From Candidatus Thalassarchaeum sp. (GTDB lineage Archaea; Thermoplasmatota; Poseidoniia; Poseidoniales; Thalassarchaeaceae): DNA of 61,457 bases. Both the position numbers and the translations under genes were made by a program. This document shows positions 10,722 through 59,222 of the stretch, in pieces. Position 1 is the stretch's first letter. Every line of letters starts with the position of its first letter. The stretch is taken from assembly GCA_022451235.1 (NCBI GenBank), contig JAKUOA010000008.1, forward strand, positions 49,584-111,040. Direction: 5' to 3'. The notes under the pieces are model-generated. The model did not search any database, was not told where the DNA came from, and saw only the letters and a list, made by a program, of their open reading frames with translations.

Positions 10722-12122
10722 TCACAAGGCATCTGAGGCAAGGAATTCATCAAGGCGATCTTCCCACATATCTCTCTTATCGGCTAATTCAGAAAGCCAT
10801 GCGCTTGCTCTATCGATACAAATTTGTTTCATTTCTCCAGCCAATAGTTTGCCGGATTCGTAATCTCTGGCAATTCTTGTTAATTCAGAGTCGTCCTCTT
10901 CAAAGAAGAATTGTAAATATTGGAATGCAACATCCTTAGAACAATCACCACCGAGCCTTCGATGTTCCTCAACTGTTGGTTGACCACCACTAAATGCCCG
11001 CTTTACCTTCTTGCTCATTTCTTCATGAGTGTCGTCCATGAAAATTGTAGTTTGAGGTTTCGAGGATGACATCTTGTCTCCAGTCAGCCCTATTGCAAAC
11101 CTGTGGTAGGTAGAACTTGGAGGCATAAGACCCATTCCACCCATTTCACGTTCTAGGCGAAGTAAACACATTCGGACTTGAGCAACATCTGATGTATTTG
11201 CGCCGGGAATGTCTAAGGTTCCATGTTTTGGATTTGATATTAAATCGGAGTAACCCATTGGAGCTAATGATGCCTTGAGTCTTTCAAAAATCGATTCCCT
11301 GACTTGGCGATCGACTTTACCATTTGCAGACACTCCAAATACTTCTGAGTTACTATTCTGCACGGATAGAGAAACTGTCAAACCCCCTGCTTTTCTTGCT
11401 TTTACGTTAAACCAATGAGTTTTGCCTGCAATACCTCTAGTAAGTCGCAAATGAGGGTCTTGGTCCACGCCAACAGGAACGACAATCGGGCGCAGGCCTC
11501 CGAATTCTTCCAGTTGTGGGTGAATTATATCACCTGCCTGAACCAAGGGTGCTTGGACATGTGCTAAATTCGTATCACCTTTGAATCCGTAAATCGCTTC
11601 AAATTCTGAAAGGTTTGTTCTACGTCCCAAGGTAAATGCAAGCCTCTGAACTTCGGGGCGGCCACTTTGAAAATATACATTGGTAGTTTTTGGATTAAGG
11701 CCGAGTGCAGCGTAGTTGTGAACATATTCCTTCAGTGCGGTTTGCCTACCTTCTTCTAGGCTAGTTCCTCTAGTTGCTAAGGCTTCAAGGTCGGCTACTG
11801 TTACAGTGATGTCTGCACCTTGTTCCTGAAACCACCTTACTTGCTCGATAACCATGGAATGGCCGAGATGCATCCTGCCGCTAGGCATTAGGCCAGTCAA
11901 TACACCAAATGGATCAGAACGCTCCATACATCCGGTAACTACGTCGAGGTCCCTGTGTGCAAAGATAATTCCTCTACGATGCAACATACTTGGATTCGGA
12001 ATTCGCGAAATATCGATGCTTTCTAGGCCGAATTGGTCCCGTATTCGAGCATAATCTGTAGATTGCTCTGAAGACCAAGGATCGATGCGAGCGGTGTCTT
12101 CCACGACCTCACGTGAATGCAC
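10722..12122 (-). CDS. trpS: Tryptophan--tRNA ligase (archaeal/eukaryotic type)
   Basis: Class I motifs HLGH (SGRMHLGHS) and KMSSSKP. At 466 aa it is too long for archaeal TyrRS. Confidence 0.7.
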   Translation of the reverse strand: MHSREVVEDTARIDPWSSEQSTDYARIRDQFGLESIDISRIPNPSMLHRRGIIFAHRDLDVVTGCMERSDPFGVLTGLMPSGRMHLGHSMVIEQVRWFQEQGADITVTVADLEALATRGTSLEEGRQTALKEYVHNYAALGLNPKTTNVYFQSGRPEVQRLAFTLGRRTNLSEFEAIYGFKGDTNLAHVQAPLVQAGDIIHPQLEEFGGLRPIVVPVGVDQDPHLRLTRGIAGKTHWFNVKARKAGGLTVSLSVQNSNSEVFGVSANGKVDRQVRESIFERLKASLAPMGYSDLISNPKHGTLDIPGANTSDVAQVRMCLLRLEREMGGMGLMPPSSTYHRFAIGLTGDKMSSSKPQTTIFMDDTHEEMSKKVKRAFSGGQPTVEEHRRLGGDCSKDVAFQYLQFFFEEDDSELTRIARDYESGKLLAGEMKQICIDRASAWLSELADKRDMWEDRLDEFLASDAL

Positions 12123-12203
12123 TCCTCAATCAACTAATCGCCCATATAATGCGACAAATGCTCGACTGCAACTAATCAAGAACTAAACCGGCTTGGGGTA
12201 ATT

Positions 12204-13265
12204 ATGGCGGTTGTGCATTGTCTAGGAACTGGATTGGTCGGTGCATGGGTTGCAAAGCGTCTAGCAACACTTGGACACGAAGTTCACGCCTATGACCTTG
12301 AACCGCATCGAGTCATGGGGATTGATGGAATTACGGTGCATCCAGGAGATGTATTGGATAATTTAATGTCAATCAGCAATAATGCTCATGTTGACATGGT
12401 TGTGAATATGTTACCGGGCGATATTGGGCATATGGCAACGACAGATCTCGCTGAAAGTAGGTATCGCGTGGTGGATTTAAGTTTCAGTGAACATACACCC
12501 GATAGAGATAATCAAAAGGCTCAGGATTACGGAGCCAGAATCCTTTGGGATGTTGGTATAGCACCGGGTTTATCGAATATGTTGCTAGCCTTCGCGGATA
12601 GGAAAATTGGACCTTTGGAAAAAGCTGAAGTTTGGGTAGGTGGAAACCCAACCGGGCCCTATGGTGAATGGAAGTATATGGCACCATTTTCCCCTGTAGA
12701 TGTAATTGCAGAATATACTAGACCGGCAAGGGTGATTAGAGAAGGAGAAGAGGTGATTCTTCCTGCGTTAACCCAACGTCATATGATAGATACCGGAGAA
12801 CATGGCGAAATGGAGGCATTTCTTACAGATGGTTTACGTTCCGTGCTGAAATCTATTCCTGCATTTGAAATGTCTGAATTCACCGTACGATGGCCGGGTC
12901 ATATTCAGAAATTTATAGACGAAAGGGAAACTGGAGAATTGAATGAAGAGGAATTAATTTGGGAGTGGAATTATGATCATAAAATTCCTGAATTTACTTG
13001 GATGAAGGTTAGAACTCAGTCAAGAACCGGTGAAGTCATGGAATGGGAAGTTGAGGATCATGGAGGCGATGATGGTCATTCTATGGCCCGAGCAACCGGA
13101 ATGGTGACTGCATGTTGTGTAGAAGCATGGTTGAAAAATCCAGATATGTTACCTGTAGGTGTCCACGCACCAGAAGCATTGGGTAACCATACAATTTCCC
13201 AAATAATACGCGCTATGAAACTCAATAACGTACGAATAGATGGCCCCGAAATATCGTTTGACTAG
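12204..13265 (+). CDS. Saccharopine dehydrogenase-family NAD(P)-binding oxidoreductase
   Basis: N-terminal Rossmann VHCLGTGLVGAWVAKRL. Size and C-terminal domain are consistent with the family; substrate unknown. Confidence 0.55.
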   Translation: MAVVHCLGTGLVGAWVAKRLATLGHEVHAYDLEPHRVMGIDGITVHPGDVLDNLMSISNNAHVDMVVNMLPGDIGHMATTDLAESRYRVVDLSFSEHTPDRDNQKAQDYGARILWDVGIAPGLSNMLLAFADRKIGPLEKAEVWVGGNPTGPYGEWKYMAPFSPVDVIAEYTRPARVIREGEEVILPALTQRHMIDTGEHGEMEAFLTDGLRSVLKSIPAFEMSEFTVRWPGHIQKFIDERETGELNEEELIWEWNYDHKIPEFTWMKVRTQSRTGEVMEWEVEDHGGDDGHSMARATGMVTACCVEAWLKNPDMLPVGVHAPEALGNHTISQIIRAMKLNNVRIDGPEISFD

Positions 13266-13297
13266 TTGGAATGTTTTGTTTTGAGTAATGGTTGATT

Positions 13298-14410
13298 TCA
13301 CCATTGTTCGTTGTCTTCTTGATCGCGAGCTACCACCCATTTGATAGCAATTGGAGTCGCGATTAATACGGCTACAGCAAAAATAGGTAATCTCCAATCC
13401 ACCTCGAGCGACGCAGGACGTTCAATTAACCAAGTAAATCTAAGTGGAGAATTATGAAAATCTGAAGTCCAATCATGCAAGTTTGTGACGTGGTGGCCAA
13501 CCACACTAACAGAATGATGTAATCCATTGAAAGTTGACTGTGGAGTATGAGTTACAGAAACATTTTCTGATTCGAAAATGAAATCCACGGAAACACCAGG
13601 AGCAACAGTAACAAACGCGCCTCCTTCAACGGGACGAACTCCTGTCAACAAGTGTTTTTGATCACTAGCAATAATCGGAGCATCCTGCCCATCGAATTGG
13701 ATATTAAGAGGTGCTTCTGACCATTCAAAGAATGCAGTTCCTGGAACCTCCCATGAAGTTTGTTCGGATGTAGAAATACGGTATGTTTTCATGTTTGAAT
13801 CATTGATTAATATGTGTTCAAAAAACTCTCCAGATTCTTTGTGACCGTGCCACTCCCCCCAAGTGGTGAACCATACATCCTGAGATTTCAGTAAAGAAAT
13901 AGCACCTTTATCCTCTCTGATATTGACATCATACCACCTTGCAATCCAGTAAATACTGACTAGACTGTCTTGCTCAGCATCTTCCAAGGCTGATATATTG
14001 GCTTGGCCTTTTTCTAGGCTGGTTATACGCTGTACCGCGTGTAAACCATAGGTATCACCTTCAATTCTATCTCCAATAATTGAAAATCCCGCTTCGGATA
14101 TCGTATTAGCAACATTTTCTGTCACCGGACCATTGGGGTGACCGAATGAAATGGGCTGAGAGCCCCAACGTGAAGCATCAGTAAATCGGTTAAGGTAATC
14201 TCGACATTCCTCGACCACCCAGAGTTCTTCCCTAACATCTACTCCTTCAAAACCATGACAGCCAAATTCATCTCCAAGTTCTAACCTTTCTGGCCCTATT
14301 ATATTACGAAGCCAATTATCATCATCCCATTCTGCAACAACTGTAGGGGCTGTTATTGGTAGCAAAATTATGCTACATATAAGCAAGCCGAGTACTCTAC
14401 GTGTGTGCAC
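13298..14410 (-). CDS. Exported protein with a C-terminal membrane anchor, function unknown
   Basis: N-terminal signal-like helix, C-terminal TM helix LPIFAVAVLIATPIAIKWVV followed by an acidic tail. Confidence 0.5.
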   Translation of the reverse strand: MHTRRVLGLLICSIILLPITAPTVVAEWDDDNWLRNIIGPERLELGDEFGCHGFEGVDVREELWVVEECRDYLNRFTDASRWGSQPISFGHPNGPVTENVANTISEAGFSIIGDRIEGDTYGLHAVQRITSLEKGQANISALEDAEQDSLVSIYWIARWYDVNIREDKGAISLLKSQDVWFTTWGEWHGHKESGEFFEHILINDSNMKTYRISTSEQTSWEVPGTAFFEWSEAPLNIQFDGQDAPIIASDQKHLLTGVRPVEGGAFVTVAPGVSVDFIFESENVSVTHTPQSTFNGLHHSVSVVGHHVTNLHDWTSDFHNSPLRFTWLIERPASLEVDWRLPIFAVAVLIATPIAIKWVVARDQEDNEQW

Positions 14411-43765: not shown

Positions 43766-45169
43766 ATGAATAAAGGTTTTCGAAATTTAGGTGAAATAAT
43801 GGGTTCTGATGAAATATTGAGAGAGGTAGATTATTCCTCTTCGGCAAAATCTAGAGTCTGTAATTTTAAGATTAAAGGGGGTGACTCAATCAAGTTGATG
43901 GTCCCACCCACTGTTTACCCACCTAGAAGTGATACTGATCTCTTACTCCGGGGTCTGAATAGCGTAAAGATGCAAACTGGAAACCTGGTGGAGATAGGAT
44001 GTGGCTCTGGAGCCATTTCAATTGCAATGGCCCTAGGTGGCTGGAATGTAACAGCCTTTGATGTAAATCCTCTAGCGGTTGTGGCAACAATAGGAAATTC
44101 TGAAGTTGCGGGTGTGGGTGATAATGTTACTGTAGAAGAGGGAGGCGTAGGCGGGGAAAATTGGACGTTACCTAAAGATGCAGATATGGTAGTATGGAAC
44201 CTTCCATACTTAGCTCCAGATTTAGAAAACATGCTTGGCCCAATGGAAGAGGCCGCTATGACTGATGATCCGAATTTAGGTTGGTCAGAAAAATTACTCA
44301 GTATTGTAAATGATGAGAGTAAAAAAGATACTATATTTATACTACTAATGAGTTCAGATTCAAACCCCAAAAATTCCCCATTGGCTTGGACAAAGAAAGG
44401 TTGGTCGCGACGGACTCTGGCGGCTGAAAGAGTAGGTGATGACACCCTAGAAGTCGTAGCTTTCTGGCGACCAGGATTTGGTTCCAAATCAGAGTATATA
44501 GAGGTGACAAACTCCACCATGGATGAGGCAAGAAAATTACCGAAAGTCGGCTGGCAAAGAATCCGCTCTGGAGAACAGATCAATGGAAGAGGAAGAAGGG
44601 GCGCAAATTGGTATTCAAAAAAAGGTGATTTGATCGCCTCTTGGAGTGTTGGACTAGATGAAATTAATCGATGGGCTCCCGGACTACTACAAGTCTCGAT
44701 TGGAGCTTCAATTAGCGAAGCATTAGGCATACAATTGAAATGGCCAAATGATTTGATTTTCCAACAAAAAAAATGCGGTGGAATTCTTCTTGAATCTAGC
44801 ACCTCGGAAGGAAGGGTTAGAATTGGTGTCGGATTGAACAAGGATGCTCGAGAGATAGACGGGGTTTCTTACGCCGGTTGGGAAGATTATTTGGGTGACA
44901 TAGACGCCGAACATATGTTCCAAATTATCGATGCTTCAATAGCATCAATATTGGATTCTTCGCCGCCAATAGAAAGTGCTGTGGATACACTATGGCAACA
45001 AAAATCTTGGATTAAATTGAGCGAAATCCTATCAAGAGGGGTGATTACCCAATACGATGAAAAAACAGTAAATGTTGTTGGCCTTTCAAACACAGGCGCA
45101 TTAAAGGCCCGTTCTGCAAATTCAAAACATGACATTCAAGATGTGGGTGAATTTTTCATTACTTTCTAA
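43766..45169 (+). CDS. Fusion protein: HemK/Mtq2-like class I methyltransferase plus biotin--protein ligase (BirA catalytic domain)
   Basis: N-terminal half has VEIGCGSGAISIAMA (SAM motif I) and VVWNLPYL (NPPY-like). C-terminal half has GRGRRGANWYS and LKWPNDL...KKCGGILLE (BPL motifs). Start codon uncertain (43766 or the ATG of MGSDEIL). Confidence 0.75.
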   Translation: MNKGFRNLGEIMGSDEILREVDYSSSAKSRVCNFKIKGGDSIKLMVPPTVYPPRSDTDLLLRGLNSVKMQTGNLVEIGCGSGAISIAMALGGWNVTAFDVNPLAVVATIGNSEVAGVGDNVTVEEGGVGGENWTLPKDADMVVWNLPYLAPDLENMLGPMEEAAMTDDPNLGWSEKLLSIVNDESKKDTIFILLMSSDSNPKNSPLAWTKKGWSRRTLAAERVGDDTLEVVAFWRPGFGSKSEYIEVTNSTMDEARKLPKVGWQRIRSGEQINGRGRRGANWYSKKGDLIASWSVGLDEINRWAPGLLQVSIGASISEALGIQLKWPNDLIFQQKKCGGILLESSTSEGRVRIGVGLNKDAREIDGVSYAGWEDYLGDIDAEHMFQIIDASIASILDSSPPIESAVDTLWQQKSWIKLSEILSRGVITQYDEKTVNVVGLSNTGALKARSANSKHDIQDVGEFFITF

Positions 45170-46487: not shown

Positions 46488-46793
46488 TCAATCGTAGGTA
46501 AGATAACGACGATATCGTCTTCTTTCGTCTCTTGCCCAAGCATTGTCTGGTTCTATCTCAAGAACCATATCATAGTATTCAACAGCCTTCTCAAACTCTG
46601 ATAGATACCTCCCACTCATATGTCCTAAATTATTCAGAACTGGTACGCAATTTGGATGTTCTTTCAACATCCGTAAAAGTATCTCCTCCGCTCCGGAAAT
46701 ATCCAACACCTCCATCCTTTCCTCGGCCTCATCTAAAGAAGCGATTTGCTCGTCGCTCAGACGGTAGATATTCTTCCAAACAGGCCCTGCCAT
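46488..46793 (-). CDS. Small TPR-like repeat protein
   Basis: Helical repeat sequence (LNNLGHMSGRYLSEFEKAVEYYDMVLEIEPDNAWA). The internal ATG at 46793 is preferred over the track start at 46886. Confidence 0.5.
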   Translation of the reverse strand: MAGPVWKNIYRLSDEQIASLDEAEERMEVLDISGAEEILLRMLKEHPNCVPVLNNLGHMSGRYLSEFEKAVEYYDMVLEIEPDNAWARDERRRYRRYLTYD

Positions 46794-46869
46794 AAATCGG
46801 ACGAGGTAGTGATTTGGTTTGAGTTTTCTCTGCCAGAGATTGCTGCGAAATATTGTCCAAAAAATAAGC

Positions 46870-46884
46870 GACCCCGAAGGGGTC
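46870..46884. promoter_or_regulatory. Perfect 6-3-6 palindrome GACCCC-GAA-GGGGTC upstream of the Rieske/cyt b operon
   Basis: Read directly. Lies 57-71 nt upstream of ATG 46941, preceded by an A-run, in the divergent spacer. Confidence 0.3.
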
Positions 46885-46940
46885 AAACTGAAACCTTGAT
46901 AGCCCTCAAACGGCTGGAATGGAATACGGGCAGAGGTCTA

Positions 46941-47759
46941 ATGATGAGAGCGCATCTACCGACCTTTCATCGGCTTGTAGTTCTGGGCTGTTTTGCCATA
47001 TTATTGGCCGGTTCAACACAGGGATATTCGAACGGAATTGGTGGTGATGAAAATGGCGACGGGGATGTGGCTCTTGCAGGTTGTACCTGCCACAATGAAT
47101 TACCCGATAACTCAGTGACTGTGATATTGGATGGACTACCATACCATTATTCTGCAGATACAACTTACCAACTTACCATTCAATTAATTGGAGGCCCCGA
47201 TATCGATTCATCTTCGAACACCGGTGGTTTCGCCATGAGGGTGACCTCAGGCTCGCTAGCAGGTGCAGACGGGTTCGAGACCCTGGTACAGAATTGGGAG
47301 GATGATGTGACTAGCTTAACTCATTCAGGTGCCGGTGCTGAAATTCCAGACAGGACTTGGATGATTACTTGGACAGCACCTGAAAACGGAACAGGGGCTG
47401 TAACCATTTGGTTAGCAGGAAACTCCGTTAATGGAGACGGTATTCCAAGTGAACTCGATCGATGGAATCGTCTTTCAATATCGTTGGAGGAAGGGGAAGA
47501 CTCAGGAGATACAAGAACCGTTTTCAGCGGAAATGGTGAGATTGAACCTCCTGCCCCGGTAGAATCTCATGTAGATCTTCACCACATGGGTGCTAAGCTT
47601 AGAGCTCATTGGTTAGGGTTACTTGGATTTGCTGCAGTTATCTTGGTTATTGTGTTCTGTGGATTTTTCTTAAGGTATGGGTTCTCTAGACATTACGTCG
47701 GAAGAAGCAATTTGCTAAAATTACGAATCAAGCACCTACGCCGAGGTGATCAACTATGA
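46941..47759 (+). CDS. Exported beta-rich protein with a C-terminal TM anchor (reeler/DOMON-like?), first gene of the Rieske/cyt b cluster
   Basis: The ATG at 46941 (MMRAHLPTF...) gives a signal peptide. GCTCHN motif near the mature N-terminus. C-terminal TM LGLLGFAAVILVIVFCGFFL. Confidence 0.55.
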   Translation: MMRAHLPTFHRLVVLGCFAILLAGSTQGYSNGIGGDENGDGDVALAGCTCHNELPDNSVTVILDGLPYHYSADTTYQLTIQLIGGPDIDSSSNTGGFAMRVTSGSLAGADGFETLVQNWEDDVTSLTHSGAGAEIPDRTWMITWTAPENGTGAVTIWLAGNSVNGDGIPSELDRWNRLSISLEEGEDSGDTRTVFSGNGEIEPPAPVESHVDLHHMGAKLRAHWLGLLGFAAVILVIVFCGFFLRYGFSRHYVGRSNLLKLRIKHLRRGDQL

Positions 47760-48205
47760 GAGACGATGTTGTGATGAAACTTCTGCGTGAAGTCAAGGCA
47801 GGCAAAGTCAGTGTAGAGGACGCCCGCGATGCGCTGTCTGAAGTTGAGTTAAGTGAGGATGCTTACCAGAACGCTGTAGACCATGGAGTATTCAATGACC
47901 CAGAACCAGGGACGATTATTCGTGCCAGTATTTCACCATCTAGTGATTCTTGGCTTGTCATCATGTTTGCTATGTGGGGCATTCTATGGACTCTATATTG
48001 GGCTGGTACGCTTTCTTATGGATTGTACAACCATTGGGATCAGCAGCGATTATCCTTCCATCTTGCGATGACTCTACTCACAGTAATTTTGATGGGAATA
48101 GTTTACCTGAGATTTGTAATGCCTGATGTAATTATTGTCAAGCATAGAAGAAACAAATACATTACTTCAAACGACCCGGATGGGTGGAAGCAGTACGAGG
48201 TGTGA
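47756..48205 (+). CDS. Two-helix membrane protein with a soluble helical N-terminus
   Basis: 4-nt start/stop overlap with the upstream gene; its stop directly abuts the Rieske start. Confidence 0.5.
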   Translation: MRDDVVMKLLREVKAGKVSVEDARDALSEVELSEDAYQNAVDHGVFNDPEPGTIIRASISPSSDSWLVIMFAMWGILWTLYWAGTLSYGLYNHWDQQRLSFHLAMTLLTVILMGIVYLRFVMPDVIIVKHRRNKYITSNDPDGWKQYEV

Positions 48206-49066
48206 ATGATGGCGCGAAGATTTCGACTAAGGCCCCTTCCCAGTGACGATGAAAACTGGTGGGAAGAGTCGAATCCTGCTATTGACCGAAGGGAATTTAT
48301 GCGCCACTCATTCAATACTGCAGCCGGGGTTATTACTATGGCTAGCCTTGGTAGTATCGGGTTTGCTTCACTGCTAATGGGTACTGCCGAGTCTTCCGGA
48401 GGAGATTCTGCTGTTAGATTCTGGGTGCCTACCGGTGCGGAAGATTCCGCTTGGTATGGTGACCGTCATCTCGAACCAATGAATTACTCTGCTTTTGTTG
48501 AAGCTGCTGCAAACAGTGGAACCGGTATGTCTGGAGCACAAGGAGTATGGTCTGGTATGCCAGTTAACGTGGTTTATGTCCCACACGAAGAAAACGTCTC
48601 AAAGGCATCGACTACAAATGTACCAAGGTTCCAATTTATGGACGGATACAATGAGAGTGGAAAATATATTGGAAGTGGTTACGAACTGGAAGAGAATCCA
48701 GATTATGCCTCATTGTCAATTCATGATAATCTGATTTTGATTTTCTCCCGTTGCACTCACCTTTGTTGTATCCCAGGCTGGCAACTTGTGAAAAATGATT
48801 TCACAAATGACCAATGGACTCCAAACGCTGTTGACGCGGGTGGAAACAAATTATTCTGTATCTGTCACTCTAGTAGATTTGACCCTACGGCTATAGAGAA
48901 AAACCGTAGTAGAAATAGATCATCTGGTGCGGAATTTGACTTCGTTGGAATTCGTAGAACGGGAGGCCCCGCACCCTATGGTTTGCCATTAATTCCTTGG
49001 GTAAAGTCCGGAGATATTATCGAAGCTCTGCCAGACTTTATCGATTGGTACACATATTGCGATTGA
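48206..49066 (+). CDS. Rieske [2Fe-2S] protein, Tat-type signal anchor
   Basis: DRREFMRHS twin-arginine-like motif plus hydrophobic helix. Cluster boxes CTHLCC and CICHSS. Confidence 0.85.
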   Translation: MMARRFRLRPLPSDDENWWEESNPAIDRREFMRHSFNTAAGVITMASLGSIGFASLLMGTAESSGGDSAVRFWVPTGAEDSAWYGDRHLEPMNYSAFVEAAANSGTGMSGAQGVWSGMPVNVVYVPHEENVSKASTTNVPRFQFMDGYNESGKYIGSGYELEENPDYASLSIHDNLILIFSRCTHLCCIPGWQLVKNDFTNDQWTPNAVDAGGNKLFCICHSSRFDPTAIEKNRSRNRSSGAEFDFVGIRRTGGPAPYGLPLIPWVKSGDIIEALPDFIDWYTYCD

Positions 49067-49076
49067 AGGTGAGAAA

Positions 49077-49943
49077 ATGTTACAATTCTGGTTTTTGTGG
49101 ATATTCATCGCACTTATTGTTGTGATAGTTGCATTCACTCTCCGCAAGGAGCGAGAGGATATGCCTCGAAAGGAGATCTTGCGGGCTGTGGAAACAAGTG
49201 CTGGAAGTATGGGGCTAGCTGAGAAATCATTCCTCTGGGCTTTCTCGTGGTTAGACACTCGATTTAGAATTCAAGATTATTGGGGCATGAGCAGAGACGC
49301 CTACTACAGTGTTCATCGCCAAATGCCACTTACTCATGCTGAAAAATACAAACTTCGGATTATTTGGTATTGGTATCCATTATATTGCCTAGGTGGAATA
49401 TCCTTCCTAGCCTTCGTTATTCTAGTAATCACAGGAGCAATTCTAGGGCTCTATTACGTCCCAGGAGGTGAGGGCGACCCCACTCCTGCCTATTCCTCTA
49501 TGGAATTCATCATGACTCAATTGCCATTTGGTTATATCATTCGATCTATTCACCATTGGACTACGCACTTCATGGTAGCCGCCGTATTCCTGCATATGTG
49601 CAGAGTTTACTTCACTGGAGCATACAGAAACCCTCGTGAGTTGAACTGGCTAATCGGAGTCGCTCTGATGTTCTTCACCATATTTTTTGGATATTCAGGA
49701 TATCTCCTCCCTTGGGATAGTCTAGCATTCGGAGCAGCAACAATTGGAATCAACATGGCAAACTCTACTCCATTGATTGGTGGATGGATTGCGACTGCTA
49801 TGTTTGCAGGAACATCACTCTCTGGTCAAACTGTTACCCGAATGTACTTCCTGCACGTATTCATCTTACCAGTTGTGGTAACAACACTGATTCTAGCCCA
49901 TTTATTCATCGTATGGGTACAAGGAATTGCGGAGCCACATTGA
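49077..49943 (+). CDS. Cytochrome b6-type (N-terminal four-helix cytochrome b)
   Basis: Helix B pair IHHWTTHFMVAAVFLH has 13 residues between the histidines. Helix D pair FLHVFILPVVVTTLILAH has 14. GYLLPWD motif. YCLGG motif near the N-terminus. Confidence 0.9.
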   Translation: MLQFWFLWIFIALIVVIVAFTLRKEREDMPRKEILRAVETSAGSMGLAEKSFLWAFSWLDTRFRIQDYWGMSRDAYYSVHRQMPLTHAEKYKLRIIWYWYPLYCLGGISFLAFVILVITGAILGLYYVPGGEGDPTPAYSSMEFIMTQLPFGYIIRSIHHWTTHFMVAAVFLHMCRVYFTGAYRNPRELNWLIGVALMFFTIFFGYSGYLLPWDSLAFGAATIGINMANSTPLIGGWIATAMFAGTSLSGQTVTRMYFLHVFILPVVVTTLILAHLFIVWVQGIAEPH

Positions 49944-49958
49944 TTGGAGGATGATTAC

Positions 49959-52730
49959 ATGGGAATGATCGATAGATTTGGCCGAATCGCAGACACCTAT
50001 GTCCGCGAAAAAAGTAGCCTTTTGGAATCTGAAAAAGAACGTAGGCGTGTCCATATGGGCCACGCATTTTGGCCAACAGAGGTTCTCCGTGATACAATCA
50101 TCTTTGCATCTATGTTGATGGTCCTATGTTTCTATTGTTGGTTAATCCCCCCGCCGCTGCACAGTGCTGCCGATCCATTTGCACAAGCTGGGTTTGTTTT
50201 CCCAGATTGGTATGTTTTATTCTCTTACGGATATTTGCGATGGGGAGAATATCTACCACAATTCGTCATTCCTGCTGGCCCAATTGGAGAATTCCTGGGC
50301 TCACCTGTAATCTCATGGAATGCGGCTTGGTGGGGAGCAGCCCTTACTGGAATTCCAGTCGGTATCCTAGCACTTCCACCTTTCTTACCTGGACGCGAAA
50401 AGAGAGGTGTCGAGGACCCATGGTTTGCAACTGCTGGAGCAGTGTATCTTGCCCACGTCTGGTTTATCTCTGTTTATTCCATCAACATCTTCCTAGAATT
50501 ATACGCCAAAGATAGGACGGATTATTGTTGGGCTAATTCAAAACATATTTTTGACTGTGGAAGACAGGCACCATGGACAGCAGAAGTATTCAATGCGGTA
50601 CCTTGGATTCTTACTGGAATTTTCATCTTTGCTGTGTTATTTTTCAGTATAAGATGGTTCCTTGTCAATTCCATCGGTGCTAGATTGACGCCTTCTATGG
50701 GTAAGCAAGTTGCGGTTGGCTCACTAATCATCGCTGTATTAATTTCAGCAGTAACTTGGCCGATTTACGAAGGTGGTTTCTGGGATTACGGAGGCCTTGG
50801 TGCAATGGATGATATCGAGGAATTAGAAACCATGCGGGGCCAACCATCTGATACTCTAGTATACTACGAAAAAGGTGACGATTGGGAAGATTGGGAAGAT
50901 GAATGTCTAACTTTCTCCGAATCAGCAGACCTAGGTGTTTGGCAGACTTTGGATGAAGATTATGATCCCGAAAAATGGTGTGTTATACCAGCTGTACACT
51001 GGTCAAATTGGGGTGTCTACCAACCAACACAATCTCTGATTATCGACTTTGAAGGATTCAACGACCATTCATTCGAAGGGAAAAACTCAGCAGGTGAAGC
51101 CGCTGAATATATCGGAACAAACGAGGGTACTAGTATTAGCTATTCATGGAGTGACATAATAGAAATCGAAGACTTGGGGGTTTCTTCCATCTTCGTTGAT
51201 GTAGGGTGTAATTTCCGAACCACGGAAAGAAATGCAGGAACTCACACTCAGGACTTGACGCTTTCAAACGATGCAGGTGAAATTCTCTGGTCAGCAGAGG
51301 ATTCTTGCGATAGTACAACACTAAAATTGACTCCAGGAACTTATCTCCTAGATTTCCAAGTCAGTTCGAGTGGAGTGAATGAATCTGTCACAATGATTAC
51401 CGATTATTCAGCTGTAGCTTTCCAACCCCTTCTACTAGATGAAAATGGAGCCGCAGCAAATCGTGCCGCCCTCCCCGTTGGTAGCGACTTATCGACTATG
51501 ACTTTGGAAAATCCAACTTTCGAAAAGAATCCAAAAAGTCTGGATGCAAAGTTAACCTATTCGATATTCGTTCCTTGTTTAGGTGTTGGTGCAATGGTCT
51601 TTATGCTTATGAGAAGCATGGCAAGAGGTTACGAATGGGAAATGAACAAGTGTTATGGTTGTGATTTGTGTGATGATGCATGTCCTGTGAGATTGTTCAA
51701 TGCAGGTGATAAGTTGAATATTATTTACAATACTTGGAACAATGAAGATGATGGAGTTCCGCTGTATTCTTGCCTGACCTGTACTGCTTGCACGAACGCT
51801 TGTCCTCAATTGGTAGATTATGACTCATACATAGATATTCGACGTAACCTAATCGTAGGTGGCCCGCCAGCTGCTGAAATACCTCACAGTATTCTTCAAG
51901 CAGTATTGGCGGCGGAAGCGGAAGAGGATGCAGATGTAGAGTTCATTCCAGTTGAAGAATATCCTATCGACTCAAGCGTTGGATATTACCCTGGTTGTGT
52001 AGATTACATCGATCAAGAAATGATATTTAGTCACGTGAATGAAGGTGAGATGAATCTAGGTGAGACAACATCCGCTGCGTTCACTATCTTTGATGAAATG
52101 GGTAAGGATGTAACCTACCTTGGTAGAGATTTCCTAAAGTGCTGCGGTCACGACCAAAAGTGGCAGGGTATGACAGAGGTATTTGAGAAACTCAAGGCGT
52201 ACAACCAGAAGAAACTTGGAGAGAGCGGAATAGACACACTGGTTACATCTTGTGCAGAGTGTTTCCGTACCTTTGCTATGGATTACGAACTTGAAGAAAT
52301 GAAGGTTATGCATACAACTGAGTATCTAATTGAAAATGGATTCGAAATGGATCTGGCTGTCTCCGAAGATGTAACTGTCACATACCACGACCCATGTCGT
52401 CTAGGTCGCCAAATGAACATCTATGATGAACCTAGAGACCTAGTTAAGGCGGTAGATGGAGTTGACCTAGTGGAGATGGAACACACCGGAGAAGATGCCC
52501 TATGCTGTGGAGTCTCTAGCATGATGTCGTGTAACGAGAATAGCCGTGCTTTGCGTCTAGAACGATTTGATGAAGTAAAAGCCACTGGAGCTGAAATCAT
52601 GCTAACAAGTTGTCCGAAATGTGTCAGCCACTTTGAGTGTCTGAAGTTTGAAGGCGACCCTAGACACGACTTCGAAATTCTCGATGTAGTATCTTTCCTT
52701 GCCAGACAGATTGAGACAAAACGGCAATAA
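49959..52730 (+). CDS. Fusion: cytochrome b C-terminal/subunit IV-like membrane domain + extracytoplasmic domain of about 270 aa + TM + 2x[4Fe-4S] ferredoxin domain + two CCG cysteine-rich domains (HdrD/GlpC-like)
   Basis: PDWYVLFSYGYLRW (PEWY-type). Six predicted TM helices. CYGCDLCDDACP and CLTCTACTNACP. PGC...KCCGHD...SCAECF and DPCRLGR...LCCGVS...SCPKCV. The ATG at 49959 is preceded by GGAGGATGA. Confidence 0.85.
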   Translation: MGMIDRFGRIADTYVREKSSLLESEKERRRVHMGHAFWPTEVLRDTIIFASMLMVLCFYCWLIPPPLHSAADPFAQAGFVFPDWYVLFSYGYLRWGEYLPQFVIPAGPIGEFLGSPVISWNAAWWGAALTGIPVGILALPPFLPGREKRGVEDPWFATAGAVYLAHVWFISVYSINIFLELYAKDRTDYCWANSKHIFDCGRQAPWTAEVFNAVPWILTGIFIFAVLFFSIRWFLVNSIGARLTPSMGKQVAVGSLIIAVLISAVTWPIYEGGFWDYGGLGAMDDIEELETMRGQPSDTLVYYEKGDDWEDWEDECLTFSESADLGVWQTLDEDYDPEKWCVIPAVHWSNWGVYQPTQSLIIDFEGFNDHSFEGKNSAGEAAEYIGTNEGTSISYSWSDIIEIEDLGVSSIFVDVGCNFRTTERNAGTHTQDLTLSNDAGEILWSAEDSCDSTTLKLTPGTYLLDFQVSSSGVNESVTMITDYSAVAFQPLLLDENGAAANRAALPVGSDLSTMTLENPTFEKNPKSLDAKLTYSIFVPCLGVGAMVFMLMRSMARGYEWEMNKCYGCDLCDDACPVRLFNAGDKLNIIYNTWNNEDDGVPLYSCLTCTACTNACPQLVDYDSYIDIRRNLIVGGPPAAEIPHSILQAVLAAEAEEDADVEFIPVEEYPIDSSVGYYPGCVDYIDQEMIFSHVNEGEMNLGETTSAAFTIFDEMGKDVTYLGRDFLKCCGHDQKWQGMTEVFEKLKAYNQKKLGESGIDTLVTSCAECFRTFAMDYELEEMKVMHTTEYLIENGFEMDLAVSEDVTVTYHDPCRLGRQMNIYDEPRDLVKAVDGVDLVEMEHTGEDALCCGVSSMMSCNENSRALRLERFDEVKATGAEIMLTSCPKCVSHFECLKFEGDPRHDFEILDVVSFLARQIETKRQ

Positions 52731-52798: not shown

Positions 52799-53131
52799 AT
52801 GACCGGAATACCCGACCTTGCAGCCCGTAGGTCTCGTGAGCAAAAACGGATTCGTATAATGATGAATGCTATGCGGGCAGAGGAACGTGCTAAACTAAAG
52901 GGAGGGGATGACGCTGTTGCTTGGGTTAAGGAGGAATTGTGTATAGGATGTGACCAATGCACAATTGTATGTGACGATGATGCCATCGAACTATATGACA
53001 CTCCATTAGCAAGCCCGATAATGGATGTTGATGTCAACCGTAAGGCAAGAGTCCTAAGAGATCCATGTACAGGTTGCAAATTGTGTGTTCTTGCTTGCCC
53101 CACGGATGCAATAATTATGATTGATAGGTGA
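52799..53131 (+). CDS. 2x[4Fe-4S] ferredoxin-type protein with a basic N-terminal extension
   Basis: CIGCDQCTIVCD and CTGCKLCVLACP motifs. Confidence 0.75.
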   Translation: MTGIPDLAARRSREQKRIRIMMNAMRAEERAKLKGGDDAVAWVKEELCIGCDQCTIVCDDDAIELYDTPLASPIMDVDVNRKARVLRDPCTGCKLCVLACPTDAIIMIDR

Positions 53132-53462
53132 TTTAATGACCGAGGAAGACCCTGTGAGATTTGGTGCGGAATTCGGACCGAAGAGAACTGAGAACTCTAC
53201 TGGAGTTTCTCTTTCAACCTTCAAAAATCTAGTTTGGATCTCCAATTTAGGTGGCTTAATTCTCTGCGCAATAGCACTAGAAATGATCATTACAGGTCAA
53301 TTTCAGTTAGGTCTAGTATGTATGGTCGCAGGTGTAATAGTGGCTCTATTTCCATCAAATTATGAGATAGTTGGCATGGAAACTATCCAAGGAGGAGATA
53401 TGGATGAAGAGGCGTCTGTGTCCGAAGGCCAACTCGGTCAGAAAGATGATGAAAATTGGTGA
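53121..53462 (+). CDS. Small two-helix membrane protein, acidic C-terminus
   Basis: Overlaps the ferredoxin gene by 11 nt. Two hydrophobic helices. Confidence 0.45.
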   Translation: MIGDLMTEEDPVRFGAEFGPKRTENSTGVSLSTFKNLVWISNLGGLILCAIALEMIITGQFQLGLVCMVAGVIVALFPSNYEIVGMETIQGGDMDEEASVSEGQLGQKDDENW

Positions 53463-56249: not shown

Positions 56250-57128
56250 TCATCCCTCCTCGCGAATCTTATCCACTGCTTCTTGCAAAGTGATGCTTCC
56301 TTTTTCAAGGGCTTGCAATGTGGTATCTAATTTCGTAGAATTAAGTAGGGTTGAATCCCATGCGGAAATCAAACGTTCACGTACTCTGAGACGTTCTCGA
56401 TCTGTAGATGTAATCACAGTTTCAAGTTGATTGACCAAGTCTTCTACACCCTGTCCTGAGTGAGCGGAAACCATTAGGACATCTGGAGTCGTATCGCCTT
56501 CCCCAACAGATAAGGCTGATTTTACTGCCTTTGCTGCTCTTTCCGCTTCAGGCAAATCTGACTTGTTGATTACAATCAAGTCTGCAAGTTCCATAATACC
56601 GGCCTTCTCTGCTTGGATTATATCCCCTCTATCCGGTCCATCGACCAGAAGAATTCTATCAGCAAATGCTACCACTCTAATCTCAGATTGACCTGCACCT
56701 ACAGTCTCGATTATGATATTCTTCCAACCACATTCAGATAGAATATCAACCATAGGCGTCAAACAATCCATCAATCCGCCAGGATGGTTTCTAGTCGCAA
56801 GGGAGCGGATGAAAACTAAATCCGAGGAATCTGCATTTACCATCCTCATTCTATCCCCAAGAAGAGCCCCCCCGCTTCTCGGTGATGATGGATCAACCGC
56901 TAAGACCGCTACCGACTCCCCACGCTCGACCCATACGTCGATCATCTTTCCAATTAGAGAGGATTTTCCTACTCCAGGAGGCCCTGTTATCCCTAAAGAT
57001 GAGCCGCTCCCATGTTGAACTGGAGAATTGTGGCCTTCCTCAACAAGAGTTAGTAGCTTGGAAAGAGAACGTCGATTACCAGTACGGGCATTTTCTAGTA
57101 GGTCCTCTGATTTATTCACCAGTGCCAC
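56250..57128 (-). CDS. meaB: Methylmalonyl-CoA mutase-associated G-protein chaperone (MeaB/ArgK)
   Basis: P-loop GPPGVGKSS and the NKSD specificity motif (INKSDL). Confidence 0.85.
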   Translation of the reverse strand: MALVNKSEDLLENARTGNRRSLSKLLTLVEEGHNSPVQHGSGSSLGITGPPGVGKSSLIGKMIDVWVERGESVAVLAVDPSSPRSGGALLGDRMRMVNADSSDLVFIRSLATRNHPGGLMDCLTPMVDILSECGWKNIIIETVGAGQSEIRVVAFADRILLVDGPDRGDIIQAEKAGIMELADLIVINKSDLPEAERAAKAVKSALSVGEGDTTPDVLMVSAHSGQGVEDLVNQLETVITSTDRERLRVRERLISAWDSTLLNSTKLDTTLQALEKGSITLQEAVDKIREEG

Positions 57129-57550
57129 CCAGCCTCTTCACCAACTCCAACAGGTTCTTCTGATTCTGAGCGTTTTTCAATAGTTGTAAGGAATTCTAGA
57201 ATTTCTGTTGATGTCGTACCAGGACCAAAGATAGCTCTAACTCCTACATCATACAGACTTTGTCGATCATGCTCAGGAATAATCCCCCCTGCAAAAACGA
57301 TTACATTATTCATTTCTGATTCACGTAACCCTTCACAAACCCTTGGGATTAGAACGGAGTGAGCTCCAGATAGCGACGAAAGCCCAAGCGCACCTGCATC
57401 CTCGTCAATTACAATGCGTACTATCTCATCTGGAGTTCGACGAAGGCCTGTATAAATCACCTCATGACCTCCGTCACGTAGGGCTCTTGCAATTACCTTG
57501 GCACCCCTATCGTGTCCATCAAGGCCGGGTTTGGCAACTACTATCCGCAT
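57116..57550 (-). CDS. Methylmalonyl-CoA mutase small subunit (B12-binding domain)
   Basis: VVAKPGLDGHDRGAKVIARALRDGGHEVIYTG (DxHxxG B12 motif). The ATG at 57550 is preferred over the track start. Confidence 0.85.
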   Translation of the reverse strand: MRIVVAKPGLDGHDRGAKVIARALRDGGHEVIYTGLRRTPDEIVRIVIDEDAGALGLSSLSGAHSVLIPRVCEGLRESEMNNVIVFAGGIIPEHDRQSLYDVGVRAIFGPGTTSTEILEFLTTIEKRSESEEPVGVGEEAGWHW

Positions 57551-57656
57551 GGTTAAGTCGTACTTGGGACATCTGTAATAGCCTTCAAGGAACCGATTGG
57601 GGCATTTTGCTCTGTATGCTCTCATTAGGAATGCTCATGGACGGCTTTGACTCGTT

Positions 57657-59222
57657 GTGGATTCATCCATGTCAGGGGTGAAGGAACGTATCGATGACTT
57701 GCGCCGTCGCAAGGCACAGGCGGAAGCCGGTGGTGGACAGAAGCGAATCGCCGCACAGCATGCTCGTGGCAAGATGACTGCTCGTGAAAGAATAGAACAA
57801 TTATTAGATCAAGATTCATTTGTAGAAGTCGATGGATTAGTTGAACATAGATGTCGAGATTTTGACATGGATAGAAATGTCATTCCCGGCGACGGAGTAG
57901 TTTGTGGACACGGTACAATTGAGGGTAAAACGGTGTATTGTTTTGCTCAAGATTTCACAGTATATGGTGGCTCATTAGGGGAGATGCATGGGCTAAAAAT
58001 CTGTAAAATACTAGATATGGCCCTAAAAACCGGCTCCCCAGTAATTGGACTAAATGACAGCGGTGGAGCACGAATTCAAGAAGGGGTTGCTAGCCTAGGT
58101 TCGTACGCTGAGATCTTTTTCCGAAATGTAAGAGCAAGCGGAGTTATCCCTCAAATTTCAGTAATCATGGGTCCCTGTGCTGGCGGGGCTGTGTACTCTC
58201 CTGCGATTACTGATTTCGTGGTAATGGTCGACCAGACCGCTCACATGTTCATCACTGGTCCAGAAGTAATCAAGACCGTGACAAATGAAGAAGTTAGTTT
58301 CGAAGACTTAGGTGGTGCATCAACCCATGCAACTAGATCTGGTGTGACTCATTTTACTGCAGATAACGATGATGATGCGCTAGAACTGGTAAGAGACCTC
58401 GTTGCAATGTTACCTCAAAATAACTTAGAAAAACCACCAATAAAATCAACATCTGACCCCCTTGATAGGGATTGTGAAACTCTCGATGAGTTGATTCCAA
58501 GTGACCCAACAACCCCCTATGATATATTAGATGCAATCGAGGCAACCCTAGACGATGGGGCATTCTTAGAGGTACAGGCTGACTTTGCTGGAAACATCGT
58601 GGTAGGATTCGGGAGACTTGGGGGGCATACCATTGGAGTTGTTGCCAATCAACCAAAAGTTTTGGCAGGTTGCTTAGACATCGATGCCTCAGTAAAAGCA
58701 GCTAGATTCGTAAGGTTTTGTGATGCTTTCAATGTACCGCTACTAACTTTTGTTGATGTCCCAGGTTTCCTTCCAGGAGCAAGTCAGGAGTGGGGTGGGA
58801 TTATTCGCCATGGAGCAAAGTTACTCTATGCTTACGCCGAAGCAACAGTTCCAAAATTAACCGTAATCACACGGAAGGCATACGGTGGCGCTTACGATGT
58901 TATGAGCAGTAAACACATTAGAGGCGATTACAACATTGCATGGCCGTCAGCCCAACTTGCAGTTATGGGAGCTGAAGGTGCTGTGCAAATTATTCACCGA
59001 CGCAGAATAGGTTCTGCTGGCGACCAAGAAGGTGAGAGGAAGCGGTTAATCGATGATTATGAAGATACATTTGCCAATCCATATCGTGCCGCTTCCTTAG
59101 GATATCTAGATGATGTTATTCAGCCGAGGGAGACTAGGGCTAAATTGACTAAAGCATTAGGCGCCCTGCTAGAAAAAGAAGAAATTAGACCCGCTCGTAA
59201 ACACGGAAACATCCCCTTGTGA
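57657..59222 (+). CDS. pccB: Acyl-CoA carboxyltransferase (propionyl-CoA carboxylase beta / methylmalonyl-CoA carboxyltransferase 12S type)
   Basis: 521 aa with a duplicated crotonase-like CT domain. Sequence typical of the family throughout ([27 protein letters not shown]). Confidence 0.9.

Follow-up and report, generated by a model that had tools for sequence, protein, structure and literature searches.

A subunit IV-like protein fused to an HdrD/EtfD-type Fe-S module in the Rieske/b6-type complex of Marine Group II archaea

What does an Fe-S module of the heterodisulfide reductase type do on a complex that oxidizes quinol through a Rieske protein and cytochrome b? The question is raised by a gene at positions 49959-52730 of a 61,457-nucleotide stretch (hereafter the window) of contig JAKUOA010000008.1 from Candidatus Thalassarchaeum sp., one of the Marine Group II (MGII) archaea. 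Databases name its product "heterodisulfide reductase subunit D" or "Fe-S oxidoreductase" and miss its other half. A first-pass annotation read it as a cytochrome b6f subunit IV-like membrane domain fused to an HdrD-like module, and proposed that electrons on the cytoplasmic (n) side of the complex could leave to, or enter from, a substrate such as a disulfide instead of only reducing quinone. We find that the fusion protein is the obligatory subunit IV of the Rieske/b6-type complex III of MGIIb, providing the PDWY half of the quinol-oxidizing Qo site. The existence of an n-side Fe-S wire on this complex is well supported; besides quinone, cytoplasmic carriers are probably electron partners of the complex.

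Conservation was measured in the best 80 of 512 relatives from a one-genome-per-species scan; all 80 are MGIIb, that is, Candidatus Thalassarchaeaceae of the Poseidoniales, and align with the window protein over full coverage at 68-98% identity. Breadth beyond MGIIb was assessed by a representative-sequence search, a metagenome scan and contig look-ups, and the loci so collected carry numbers prefixed L. Of two word-indexed homologue searches, one yielded few distant relatives and the other mainly the near-identical MGII proteins already seen. The fusion gene and its parts are as follows.

49959..52730, + strand: fusion gene, 923 aa; subunit IV-like domain, extra helices and insert, then HdrC-like and HdrB-like modules
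50046..50498, + strand: subunit IV/cytochrome b C-terminal domain, residues ~30-180, helices E, F and G, from profile comparison with the PDB; 88% identity across the 80 species
50595..50765, + strand: two additional transmembrane helices, residues 213-231 and 251-269, from hydropathy; 69% identity across the 80 species
50766..51551, + strand: acidic insert, residues 270-531 (262 aa), between helices 5 and 6; 51 D/E versus 11 K/R
51552..51608, + strand: sixth transmembrane helix, residues 532-550, from hydropathy; aligns with the last helix of relatives with four
51639..51809, + strand: HdrC-like 2x[4Fe-4S] domain (Fer4_8/9/10); C565, C568, C571, C575 and C605, C608, C611, C615
51984..52268, + strand: CCG domain 1 (Pfam CCG); C680, C728, C729, C765, C768
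52377..52634, + strand: CCG domain 2 (Pfam CCG, best stretch residues 807-892); C813, C849, C850, C885, C888

The + strand open reading frame ends at 52730 and could start at 49944 (TTG) or 49959 (ATG). ATG 49959 is the likely start because it has GGAGG 8 nt upstream and because homologues of 922-924 aa begin MG(M/L)I. That a chimeric assembly or a frame-restoring error joined a subunit IV gene to an HdrD gene, a concern voiced at first pass, has a negligible probability, so far as assemblies can tell: more than 100 near-identical full-length proteins (95-97% identity clusters) from independent ENA, JGI, Tara, Logan and NCBI assemblies share the identical 923-aa design, the frame is single and uninterrupted in 80/80 MGIIb species representatives (924-1045 codons, stop to stop), unrelated metagenomes hold shorter fused relatives, and in the split versions found elsewhere the break separates Fer4 from CCG, whereas the junction of membrane and soluble halves stays intact.

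The membrane half was recognized through its relatives. Residues 1-560 gave no Pfam or NCBIfam match from the single sequence, and phmmer with the single sequence matched PDB subunit IV weakly (E = 0.12). A profile of 10 N-terminal sequences matched bc1 cytochrome b (residues 231-380, E = 5e-15), actinobacterial QcrB (residues 245-426, helices E-H, E = 1e-10) and b6f subunit IV (E = 2e-8), and a precomputed PF00032 record exists for shorter relatives. These profiles establish homology of the N-terminal part with b6f subunit IV and with cytochrome b in its C-terminal half. The PEWY-type Qo motif noted at first pass thus sits in a domain with family-profile support; here it reads PDWY (residues 82-85, nt 50202-50213) and is invariant in all aligned family members. 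The N-terminal domain has no His pair for haem that is conserved across the aligned family. The protein resembles PetD of b6f, where cytochrome b is likewise split, subunit IV carries helices E-G with P(E/D)WY, and the partner b6 has the haem ci cysteine.

Hydropathy places hydrophobic helices at residues 46-64, 122-143, 161-179, 213-231, 251-269 and 532-550, in line with the six helices and the acidic, outward insert of about 270 residues described at first pass. By the same crude measure, which is unstable for the relatives and so carries no weight here in arguing from helix parity, the short relatives have four; the two additional helices in this form occur in the MGII long version only and are missing from relatives of 543-626 aa. 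The insert shows 55% identity yet is almost gap-free across the 80 species. Three Cys pairs in predicted outside segments, C190/C200, C316/C341 and C417/C450, are 100% conserved in these species and fit disulfides on the outer face. AlphaFold gives insert residues 360-490 a predicted local distance difference test score (pLDDT) of 76-90, and the second half of the insert is predicted to form a beta-sandwich. Foldseek matched it to generic GOLD/PPC/CBM-like beta-sandwiches (TM 0.5-0.63) and to no redox fold. We therefore rejected the insert as a redox domain analogous to a cupredoxin or cytochrome f; it also holds no metal-site motif.

The N terminus of subunit IV lies on the n side. Because the fusion protein has six helices and its N terminus would be inside as in subunit IV, the C-terminal module should lie inside as well, its first cluster cysteine 14 residues past the sixth helix. 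A cytoplasmic Fe-S module fits all of the sequence evidence, and the insert would then face outward, the predicted orientation being drawn from hydropathy, homology, the outer Cys pairs and the need of Fe-S domains for an inside location.

The soluble half contains, after the last helix, the two ferredoxin motifs and two complete CCG domains that had been read there, with all 18 cluster cysteines located. CxxCxxCxxxCP occurs twice (C565-P576 and C605-P616), and the CCG domains are spaced C680-X47-C728 C729 G-X35-C765xxC768 and C813-X35-C849 C850 G-X34-C885xxC888, the first spacer of CCG1 exceeding the canonical X31-39. Pfam matches were CCG (E = 3e-23) and a Fer4 dicluster (E ~5e-7). Against the PDB, the profile matched HdrC (5odc_C, E = 2e-19), HdrB (E = 3e-13) and EtfD (E = 6e-51); EtfD (9ojn, residues 407-747) was also matched by the single sequence (E = 9e-21) and by Foldseek (E = 1e-16), in which EtfD, LutA and HdrB were the top structural matches of the Fe-S part. 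By these comparisons the Fe-S part is an HdrC+HdrB (HdrD/EtfD-type) module whose closest solved relative is mycobacterial EtfD. Its nearest non-membrane relatives are stand-alone HdrD-like proteins and MvhD::HdrD and GltD-like::HdrD fusions. No curated NCBIfam equivalog cut-off was reached among TfrB, DsrK, GlpC, GlcF, LdhH and TmcB; TfrB scored best (109 of 385 bits, E = 3e-31), with GlpC at 45 of 278 and DsrK at 31 of 400.

Cysteine conservation differs between MGIIb and the wider family. In the 80 MGIIb species the 8 cubane and 10 CCG cysteines are 100% conserved, C858 and C894 are invariant too, and identity to the window protein is 98% in the HdrC-like domain and 85-89% in the CCG domains. 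A motif table of 25 family members shows CCG2 and the eight cubane cysteines invariant, while CCG1 is short of one cysteine in 11 of them (C729 to V/T/S in nine, C768 to G in two). Conservation of the cluster cysteines, on which the first-pass reading depended, thus holds throughout MGIIb and for the cubane and CCG2 sites of all 25 relatives, but for CCG1 in only 14. The window protein has CCG and CAEC (Glu767) versus CTG and His583 of EtfD, and relatives with CVG, CTG and CSG exist.

These patterns bear on function. Heterodisulfide cleavage in HdrB uses both full clusters (PMC13083937). In EtfD the CCG clusters do not catalyze but relay electrons from the electron-transfer flavoprotein (ETF); one CCG cluster is modified, and the cluster equivalent to the proximal one lies ~7 Å from haem b (PMC13083937). 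Such a module also relays ETF electrons to haem b and menaquinone in EMO of Syntrophus (bioRxiv 10.64898/2026.08.18.745454). Since HdrB catalysis uses both full clusters and CCG1 is degenerate in 11/25 members, a family-wide disulfide reductase function appears unlikely; the same degeneracy beside invariant CCG2 and cubane cysteines is the pattern of EtfD and EMO, and for this reason we favor a relay. The likeness to EtfD (PDB 9ojn) and EMO, which are ETF:(methyl)menaquinone oxidoreductases, extends to architecture: in both enzymes one polypeptide holds a haem-bearing membrane domain followed by an HdrD-like module that relays electrons from a protein donor to quinone, and the variability of one CCG cluster is shared with the wider fusion family. 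However, the EtfD/EMO membrane domain has 5 transmembrane helices, one to three b haems and a quinone site of its own, and, unlike the fusion protein, neither a Qo site nor a Rieske partner. EtfD also has its ETF partner, whereas etfAB was not found in the window of the fusion gene.

The fusion gene is the fifth of seven + strand genes, spaced by -11 to +68 nt, whose synteny is kept in 72-79 of the 80 MGIIb species. The other six are listed here.

46746..47759, + strand: "choice-of-anchor V" surface protein, first gene; NCBIfam NF041895, E = 1e-25; probable start ATG 46941 (MMRAHL...)
47756..48205, + strand: DUF7318 small membrane protein, 2 transmembrane helices, conserved accessory subunit; PF24002, E = 5e-5, below cut-off
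48206..49066, + strand: Rieske [2Fe-2S] protein; TIGR01416, E = 1e-10, below cut-off; twin-arginine signal DRREFMR
49077..49943, + strand: b6-type cytochrome b, 288 aa, helices A-D plus one extra N-terminal transmembrane helix; PF00033, E = 1e-41
52799..53131, + strand: 2x[4Fe-4S] ferredoxin-type subunit, 110 aa; Fer4_21, E = 1e-12; rnfB TIGR01944, E = 5e-12, below cut-off
53121..53462, + strand: small membrane protein, 2 predicted transmembrane helices, last gene; probable start ATG 53136

The Rieske and cytochrome b genes stand directly upstream of the fusion gene (synteny in 77-79 of 80 species). Both cluster boxes of the Rieske protein, CTHLCC and CICHSS, are kept in 81 sequences. Cytochrome b has cytochrome b6 as its best PDB match (1q90_B, E = 8e-42) and possesses the four His haem ligands; its Cys104 aligns with Cys35 of b6, the ligand of haem ci (also called cn), and the stretch WYPLYCLGG is at least 97% conserved in 86 sequences, which retain the His ligands too, so that the haem-ci cysteine ascribed to this neighbor at first pass stands. 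No second cytochrome b or Rieske gene was found in the window or in the flanks read. Because this cytochrome b has helices A-D only and the fusion protein is the sole source of PDWY, the Fe-S module must, judging from the gene set, be a stoichiometric part of the complex.

Immediately downstream, in 78/80 species, lies the ferredoxin-type subunit, which has a basic N-terminal extension and a long spacer between its cluster motifs. Tully 2019 noted that MGII carry an orphan RnfB (PMC6336850); the ferredoxin subunit is probably that protein. The MGII papers tied the orphan RnfB to sodium energetics, and the operon placement of the gene suggests a different role. The small protein that closes the operon (synteny 76/80) has conserved RFGAEFGP and FPSNYEI motifs.

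On the outer (p) side, the anchor-V protein (syntenic in 72/80 species) is a candidate electron acceptor analogous to cytochrome c1/f, with a putative redox role. Its GCTCH and H-x-MGA motifs (two Cys, two His and one Met) and its C-terminal anchor AHWLGLLGF are at least 97% conserved; no PDB homologue was found. The Thermoplasmata operons have at position 1 a type-1 copper protein whose C-terminal anchor is similar (LRAYWIGVLGM) and for which the anchor-V protein may be a metal-binding stand-in. The DUF7318 protein (MGIIb synteny 72/80) has PF24002 counterparts at the equivalent position in L001, L002, L083, L084, L086 and L087.

The search for fused and split versions returned both, so the fusion is family-wide and not singular. 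It is the mark of an archaeal family of complexes, probably from Thermoplasmatota, in which two operon types can be told apart. The gene order of type A is type-1 copper or anchor-V protein, DUF7318 protein, Rieske protein, cytochrome b, subunit IV::HdrC-like protein, (poly)ferredoxin and small protein with two transmembrane helices; its CCG part is either fused or encoded by a separate HdrB-like gene of 324-330 aa. The split form occurs in L083/L084 (two large assemblies), in L086/L087 and in the marine contigs L161-L166. The subunit IV::Fer4 protein of L086/L087 is labeled "Thermoplasmata archaeon" by NCBI and an A-type ATP synthase operon adjoins it; for the gene that opens the L083 operon the matches are blue copper proteins (6kol, E = 5e-5; auracyanin, rusticyanin).

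Type B, found in L002 and L088-L100 with archaeal neighbors (A-type ATPase), has the order DUF7318 protein, Rieske protein, cytochrome b extended outward by a cupredoxin or Ig-like part, fused subunit IV::HdrC::HdrB, HdrA-like protein, MvhD/FlpD-like protein and small protein with two transmembrane helices. Its fusion protein has 543-626 aa and four helices, and the HdrA-like flavoprotein is encoded by one or two genes. HdrA-like genes were present in 10/10 newly scanned type-B loci holding downstream sequence, and in L002, while the 80 MGIIb loci, read to +-8 kb, showed neither an HdrA nor an MvhD gene. Homologues of the MGII ferredoxin subunit are the ferredoxin of the Thermoplasmata operons (E = 4e-15) and the C-terminal ferredoxin domain of a type-B HdrA-N-like protein (E = 1e-8), which has the same spacer of unusual length. 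In view of this shared homology and spacer, it probably takes the corresponding place in the complex.

Collectively, the ferredoxin gene, the split subunit IV::HdrC and HdrB genes, and the HdrA/MvhD genes support that part of the original hypothesis which wires the n side of the complex to the cytoplasm; the part that named a disulfide as substrate is weakened by the degenerate CCG1. What, then, does the wire carry? We lean, with something slightly short of an even chance, toward a wire that mainly feeds electrons from a cytoplasmic donor to haem ci/bH and the quinone-reducing Qi site. The Fe-S module and the ferredoxin subunit would form a wire fixed on the n-side face, beside haem bH, the putative haem ci and the Qi pocket; the occupancy of the cofactor sites, haem ci included, and the contact between the proximal cluster and haem are presumed. 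In b6f, the Qi pocket houses haem cn at the n-side surface, and this haem has been proposed as an entry point for ferredoxin electrons. Possible donors are an ETF-type flavoprotein, of the kind that serves EtfD/EMO, and ferredoxin that 2-oxoacid oxidoreductases have reduced. Their electrons would pass through the wire to haem ci/bH and reduce quinone at Qi; the resulting quinol would be reoxidized at Qo, delivering electrons to the Rieske center, the surface-anchored acceptor and an oxidase. The whole would be a donor:quinone oxidoreductase built into complex III. As aerobic heterotrophs that feed on proteins and fatty acids (PMC6336850), MGII must dispose of electrons from ferredoxin- and ETF-linked dehydrogenases. 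A PDWY motif indicates a menaquinol-type, low-potential system (PMC4122944); by analogy, such a low-potential quinol would suit the mid-potential range of HdrDE/EtfD wires.

Several points weigh against electron entry. Both the direction of flow and the identity of the donor are inferred, and no gene for ETF, 2-oxoacid oxidoreductase or another donor was found in the window. Electron exit or bifurcation would account for the HdrA/MvhD partners of type B just as well. None of the ten CCG cysteines is missing in any of the 80 MGIIb species, and catalytic HdrB and HdrD likewise retain theirs. Were the ferredoxin subunit to dock on the HdrC-like domain, as the ferredoxin domain of HdrA does in HdrABC, the chain would dead-end at the CCG clusters, which would then probably be catalytic. 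In archaea, attachment of haem ci is so far putative. Finally, AlphaFold2 modeled the full protein from a 30-row alignment with a mean pLDDT of only 62, and below 50 in the membrane part.

Doubtful, but the strongest of the alternatives, is that electrons leave by the same wire: with bifurcation at Qo, the low-potential electron (from bL to bH/ci) would exit through the Fe-S clusters and not to quinone at Qi. In MGII the electron would be taken up by the ferredoxin subunit and soluble ferredoxin, in type B by NAD(P)+ or ferredoxin via the HdrA-like flavoproteins. The high-potential branch would drive this exit, as has been suggested for two other systems, the extended Rieske/b complexes found in anammox bacteria and QmoABC. 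The former have added cytoplasmic NAD(P)-linked Fe-S flavoproteins and the latter combines a b-type cytochrome with HdrC-, HdrA- and MvhD-like parts; both are proposed links between the quinone pool and the cytoplasm, and Qmo is thought to move electrons from menaquinol to a cytoplasmic acceptor. Type-B operons hold the same set of parts, with HdrA- and MvhD-like genes following the fusion gene, and the nearest non-fusion relatives, MvhD::HdrD and GltD-like::HdrD, are typical of soluble Hdr-type complexes. The likeness is incomplete: QmoC is an HdrE-type cytochrome b that has no Rieske protein or Qo site, the anammox complexes to our knowledge lack CCG domains, and the MGII form, unlike Qmo, has neither HdrA nor MvhD beside it. 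That the Qo site, the Rieske protein and the ligands of both b haems are fully conserved accords with bifurcation, and Kao & Hunte list cytochromes b with fused Fe-S/MvhD or flavin oxidoreductase domains (PMC4122944). However, MGII, as aerobic heterotrophs, are well supplied with NADH and do not obviously need reverse electron flow (PMC6336850), and reduction of ferredoxin by a menaquinol-type donor against the membrane potential would, from standard potentials, be energetically marginal.

It is unlikely that the complex is instead a catalytic thiol/disulfide enzyme resembling HdrDE, its CCG clusters reducing a disulfide with quinol electrons or oxidizing thiols to feed quinone. With all ten CCG cysteines kept, disulfide chemistry is possible in the MGIIb branch. 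The best NCBIfam match, thiol:fumarate reductase TfrB, has a catalytic CCG domain, and the modules run haem, 2x[4Fe-4S], CCG, as they do in HdrDE. As in HdrDE of Methanosarcina, a cytoplasmic HdrD-type module sits on a haem b membrane subunit with the cubane domain proximal to the membrane. But the membrane partner there, HdrE, is a NarI-type dihaem cytochrome b, in contrast to the subunit IV found here, which belongs to a Rieske/b6 complex possessing a Qo site, and HdrDE has no counterpart of the dedicated ferredoxin subunit of the MGIIb complex. The loss of one CCG1 cysteine in 11/25 orthologous complexes recalls noncatalytic EtfD, and all equivalog scores, those of TfrB and DsrK among them, fall far under their cut-offs. 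Genes for coenzyme M/coenzyme B, DsrC-like proteins or lipoate carriers were not found in the window, the only region searched for them, and no candidate low-molecular-weight disulfide is known for these aerobic heterotrophs.

Still less probable is a module that passes no electrons through, serving as redox sensor, assembly or stability domain or Hdr relic on an otherwise ordinary Q-cycle complex III. The MGII form does lack the HdrA/MvhD partners of its relatives, and the subunit has acquired accessory parts, as its additional helices and outward insert attest. Yet the Fer4 domain is the most conserved region of the protein (98% versus 55% for the insert), the 18 cluster cysteines are invariant in MGIIb, and the ferredoxin gene is kept in 78/80 species, and such strong constraint is not expected of a relic.

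Returning to a wire that admits donor electrons, we can ask how far it might be generalized. A so far unrecognized "Rieske/b6-Hdr" class of complex III in Thermoplasmatota, the very abundant marine MGII included, in which haem bH/ci is hard-wired via HdrC/HdrB clusters to a ferredoxin subunit or to HdrA/MvhD flavoproteins, is a tentative proposal that we think possible but would not call probable. Its individual parts are known, and the combination of a Qo-site complex with an n-side Hdr-type Fe-S wire is unfamiliar. All known fusions to subunit IV lie on the p side: in Bacillus QcrC, subunit IV is fused to a c-type cytochrome that accepts Rieske electrons, whereas the module here is an n-side Fe-S one and the protein also has three more helices and the outward insert. 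HdrD-type modules, in turn, are known on NarI-type or EtfD-type haem domains.

In the open-access papers and preprints searched, no description of the fusion or of the operon was found. The claim that the partnership is unusual was correct in that the membrane half is subunit IV-like and b6-type, not NarI-type, but Fe-S modules on bc-type cytochrome b are not entirely unprecedented (PMC4122944). The only published mention that we found of such modules fused to this cytochrome b family is the "PDWF-FeS clade" of Magnetospirillum magneticum AMB-1, Turneriella parva and Alicycliphilus denitrificans (Kao & Hunte 2014, PMC4122944). Its members likewise combine a bc-type cytochrome b with 4Fe-4S/MvhD domains, or with ferredoxin and flavin oxidoreductase; in contrast to the fusion protein they are bacterial and have PDWF as Qo motif, and CCG domains are not reported in the one paragraph that mentions them, which leaves context and function aside; the likeness is one of described architecture. 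A 2026 survey of CCG-domain enzymes does not list a Rieske/bc partner.

MGII are uncultured and among the commonest archaea and heterotrophs of the surface ocean. Their metabolic reconstructions record cytochrome b and Rieske proteins, "no canonical bc1" and an orphan RnfB (PMC6336850). One conserved seven-gene complex accounts for both the missing canonical complex III and the RnfB remarks; with the subunit IV half missed in annotation, complex III is scored as incomplete. For bioenergetics, the purpose of haem ci and the entry or exit of n-side electrons in a bc-type complex become testable, and the split, fused and HdrA/MvhD-linked versions form a natural series for studying how Hdr modules are reused in evolution. 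If the proposal is true, the Q cycle would be coupled directly to ferredoxin- and flavin-based redox chemistry, aerobic archaea would have their long-sought route of ferredoxin reoxidation, and the complex would be a natural, fixed version of the path from ferredoxin to haem cn that is debated for cyclic electron flow through b6f.

Several smaller observations concern the operons. The cytochrome b and fusion genes are in one frame with only TGA plus 15 nt between them (49941-49958); stop read-through was considered and rejected, the frame relation not being kept in L064, L068 and L080. Such hypothetical read-through would restore a long bc1-type cytochrome b, and the arrangement is probably a coincidence. 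Some relatives have outward N-terminal extensions on cytochrome b, namely a cupredoxin (L002, 6406-7968) or one to four Big_5 Ig-like domains (L001, 898-3174; L094, 3706-6909), implying that the p-side acceptor is fused to cytochrome b in some members. The operons of L001, L002, L083 and L086 end in small membrane proteins of 82-107 aa with, judged by reading, two transmembrane helices; the closing protein of Thermoplasmata has a C-terminal CxxC...CxxC zinc ribbon (L083, 10773-11096; L086, 10546-10869) where that of MGII has an acidic tail instead. Contig PAQG01000017.1 (L078), labeled "Acidimicrobiaceae bacterium", holds the whole MGII operon at 61-89% protein identity (74% for the fusion) and is most likely a mis-binned archaeal contig.

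Divergent from the split operon of L083 are two FAD_binding_4 (GlcD/GlcE-like) genes (11104-14035, - strand), and GlcF, the usual partner of GlcD/GlcE, is a Fer4+CCG protein. Such neighbors were not seen beside the other operons examined, apart from a faint FAD_binding_4 match ~6 kb downstream in L086. These genes, and the lipoate/biotin-ligase-like genes near L001 and in the window, were discarded as functional clues: they are on the opposite strand or separated, and are not conserved.

The remainder of the window is ordinary chromosomal DNA, encoding RNA polymerase, the proteasome, a class I (Trp/Tyr-type) tRNA synthetase, thymidylate synthase and genes of the methylmalonyl-CoA pathway. One open reading frame at 43766-45169 combines a PrmA-like methyltransferase domain with a biotin/lipoate protein ligase domain. 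The cluster at 56250-59222 encodes MeaB, a probable B12-binding methylmalonyl-CoA mutase subunit (assigned by reading only) and a carboxyltransferase of the propionyl-CoA carboxylase type; these genes point to the catabolism of propionate or of odd-chain or branched-chain compounds, a source of ETF-linked electrons.

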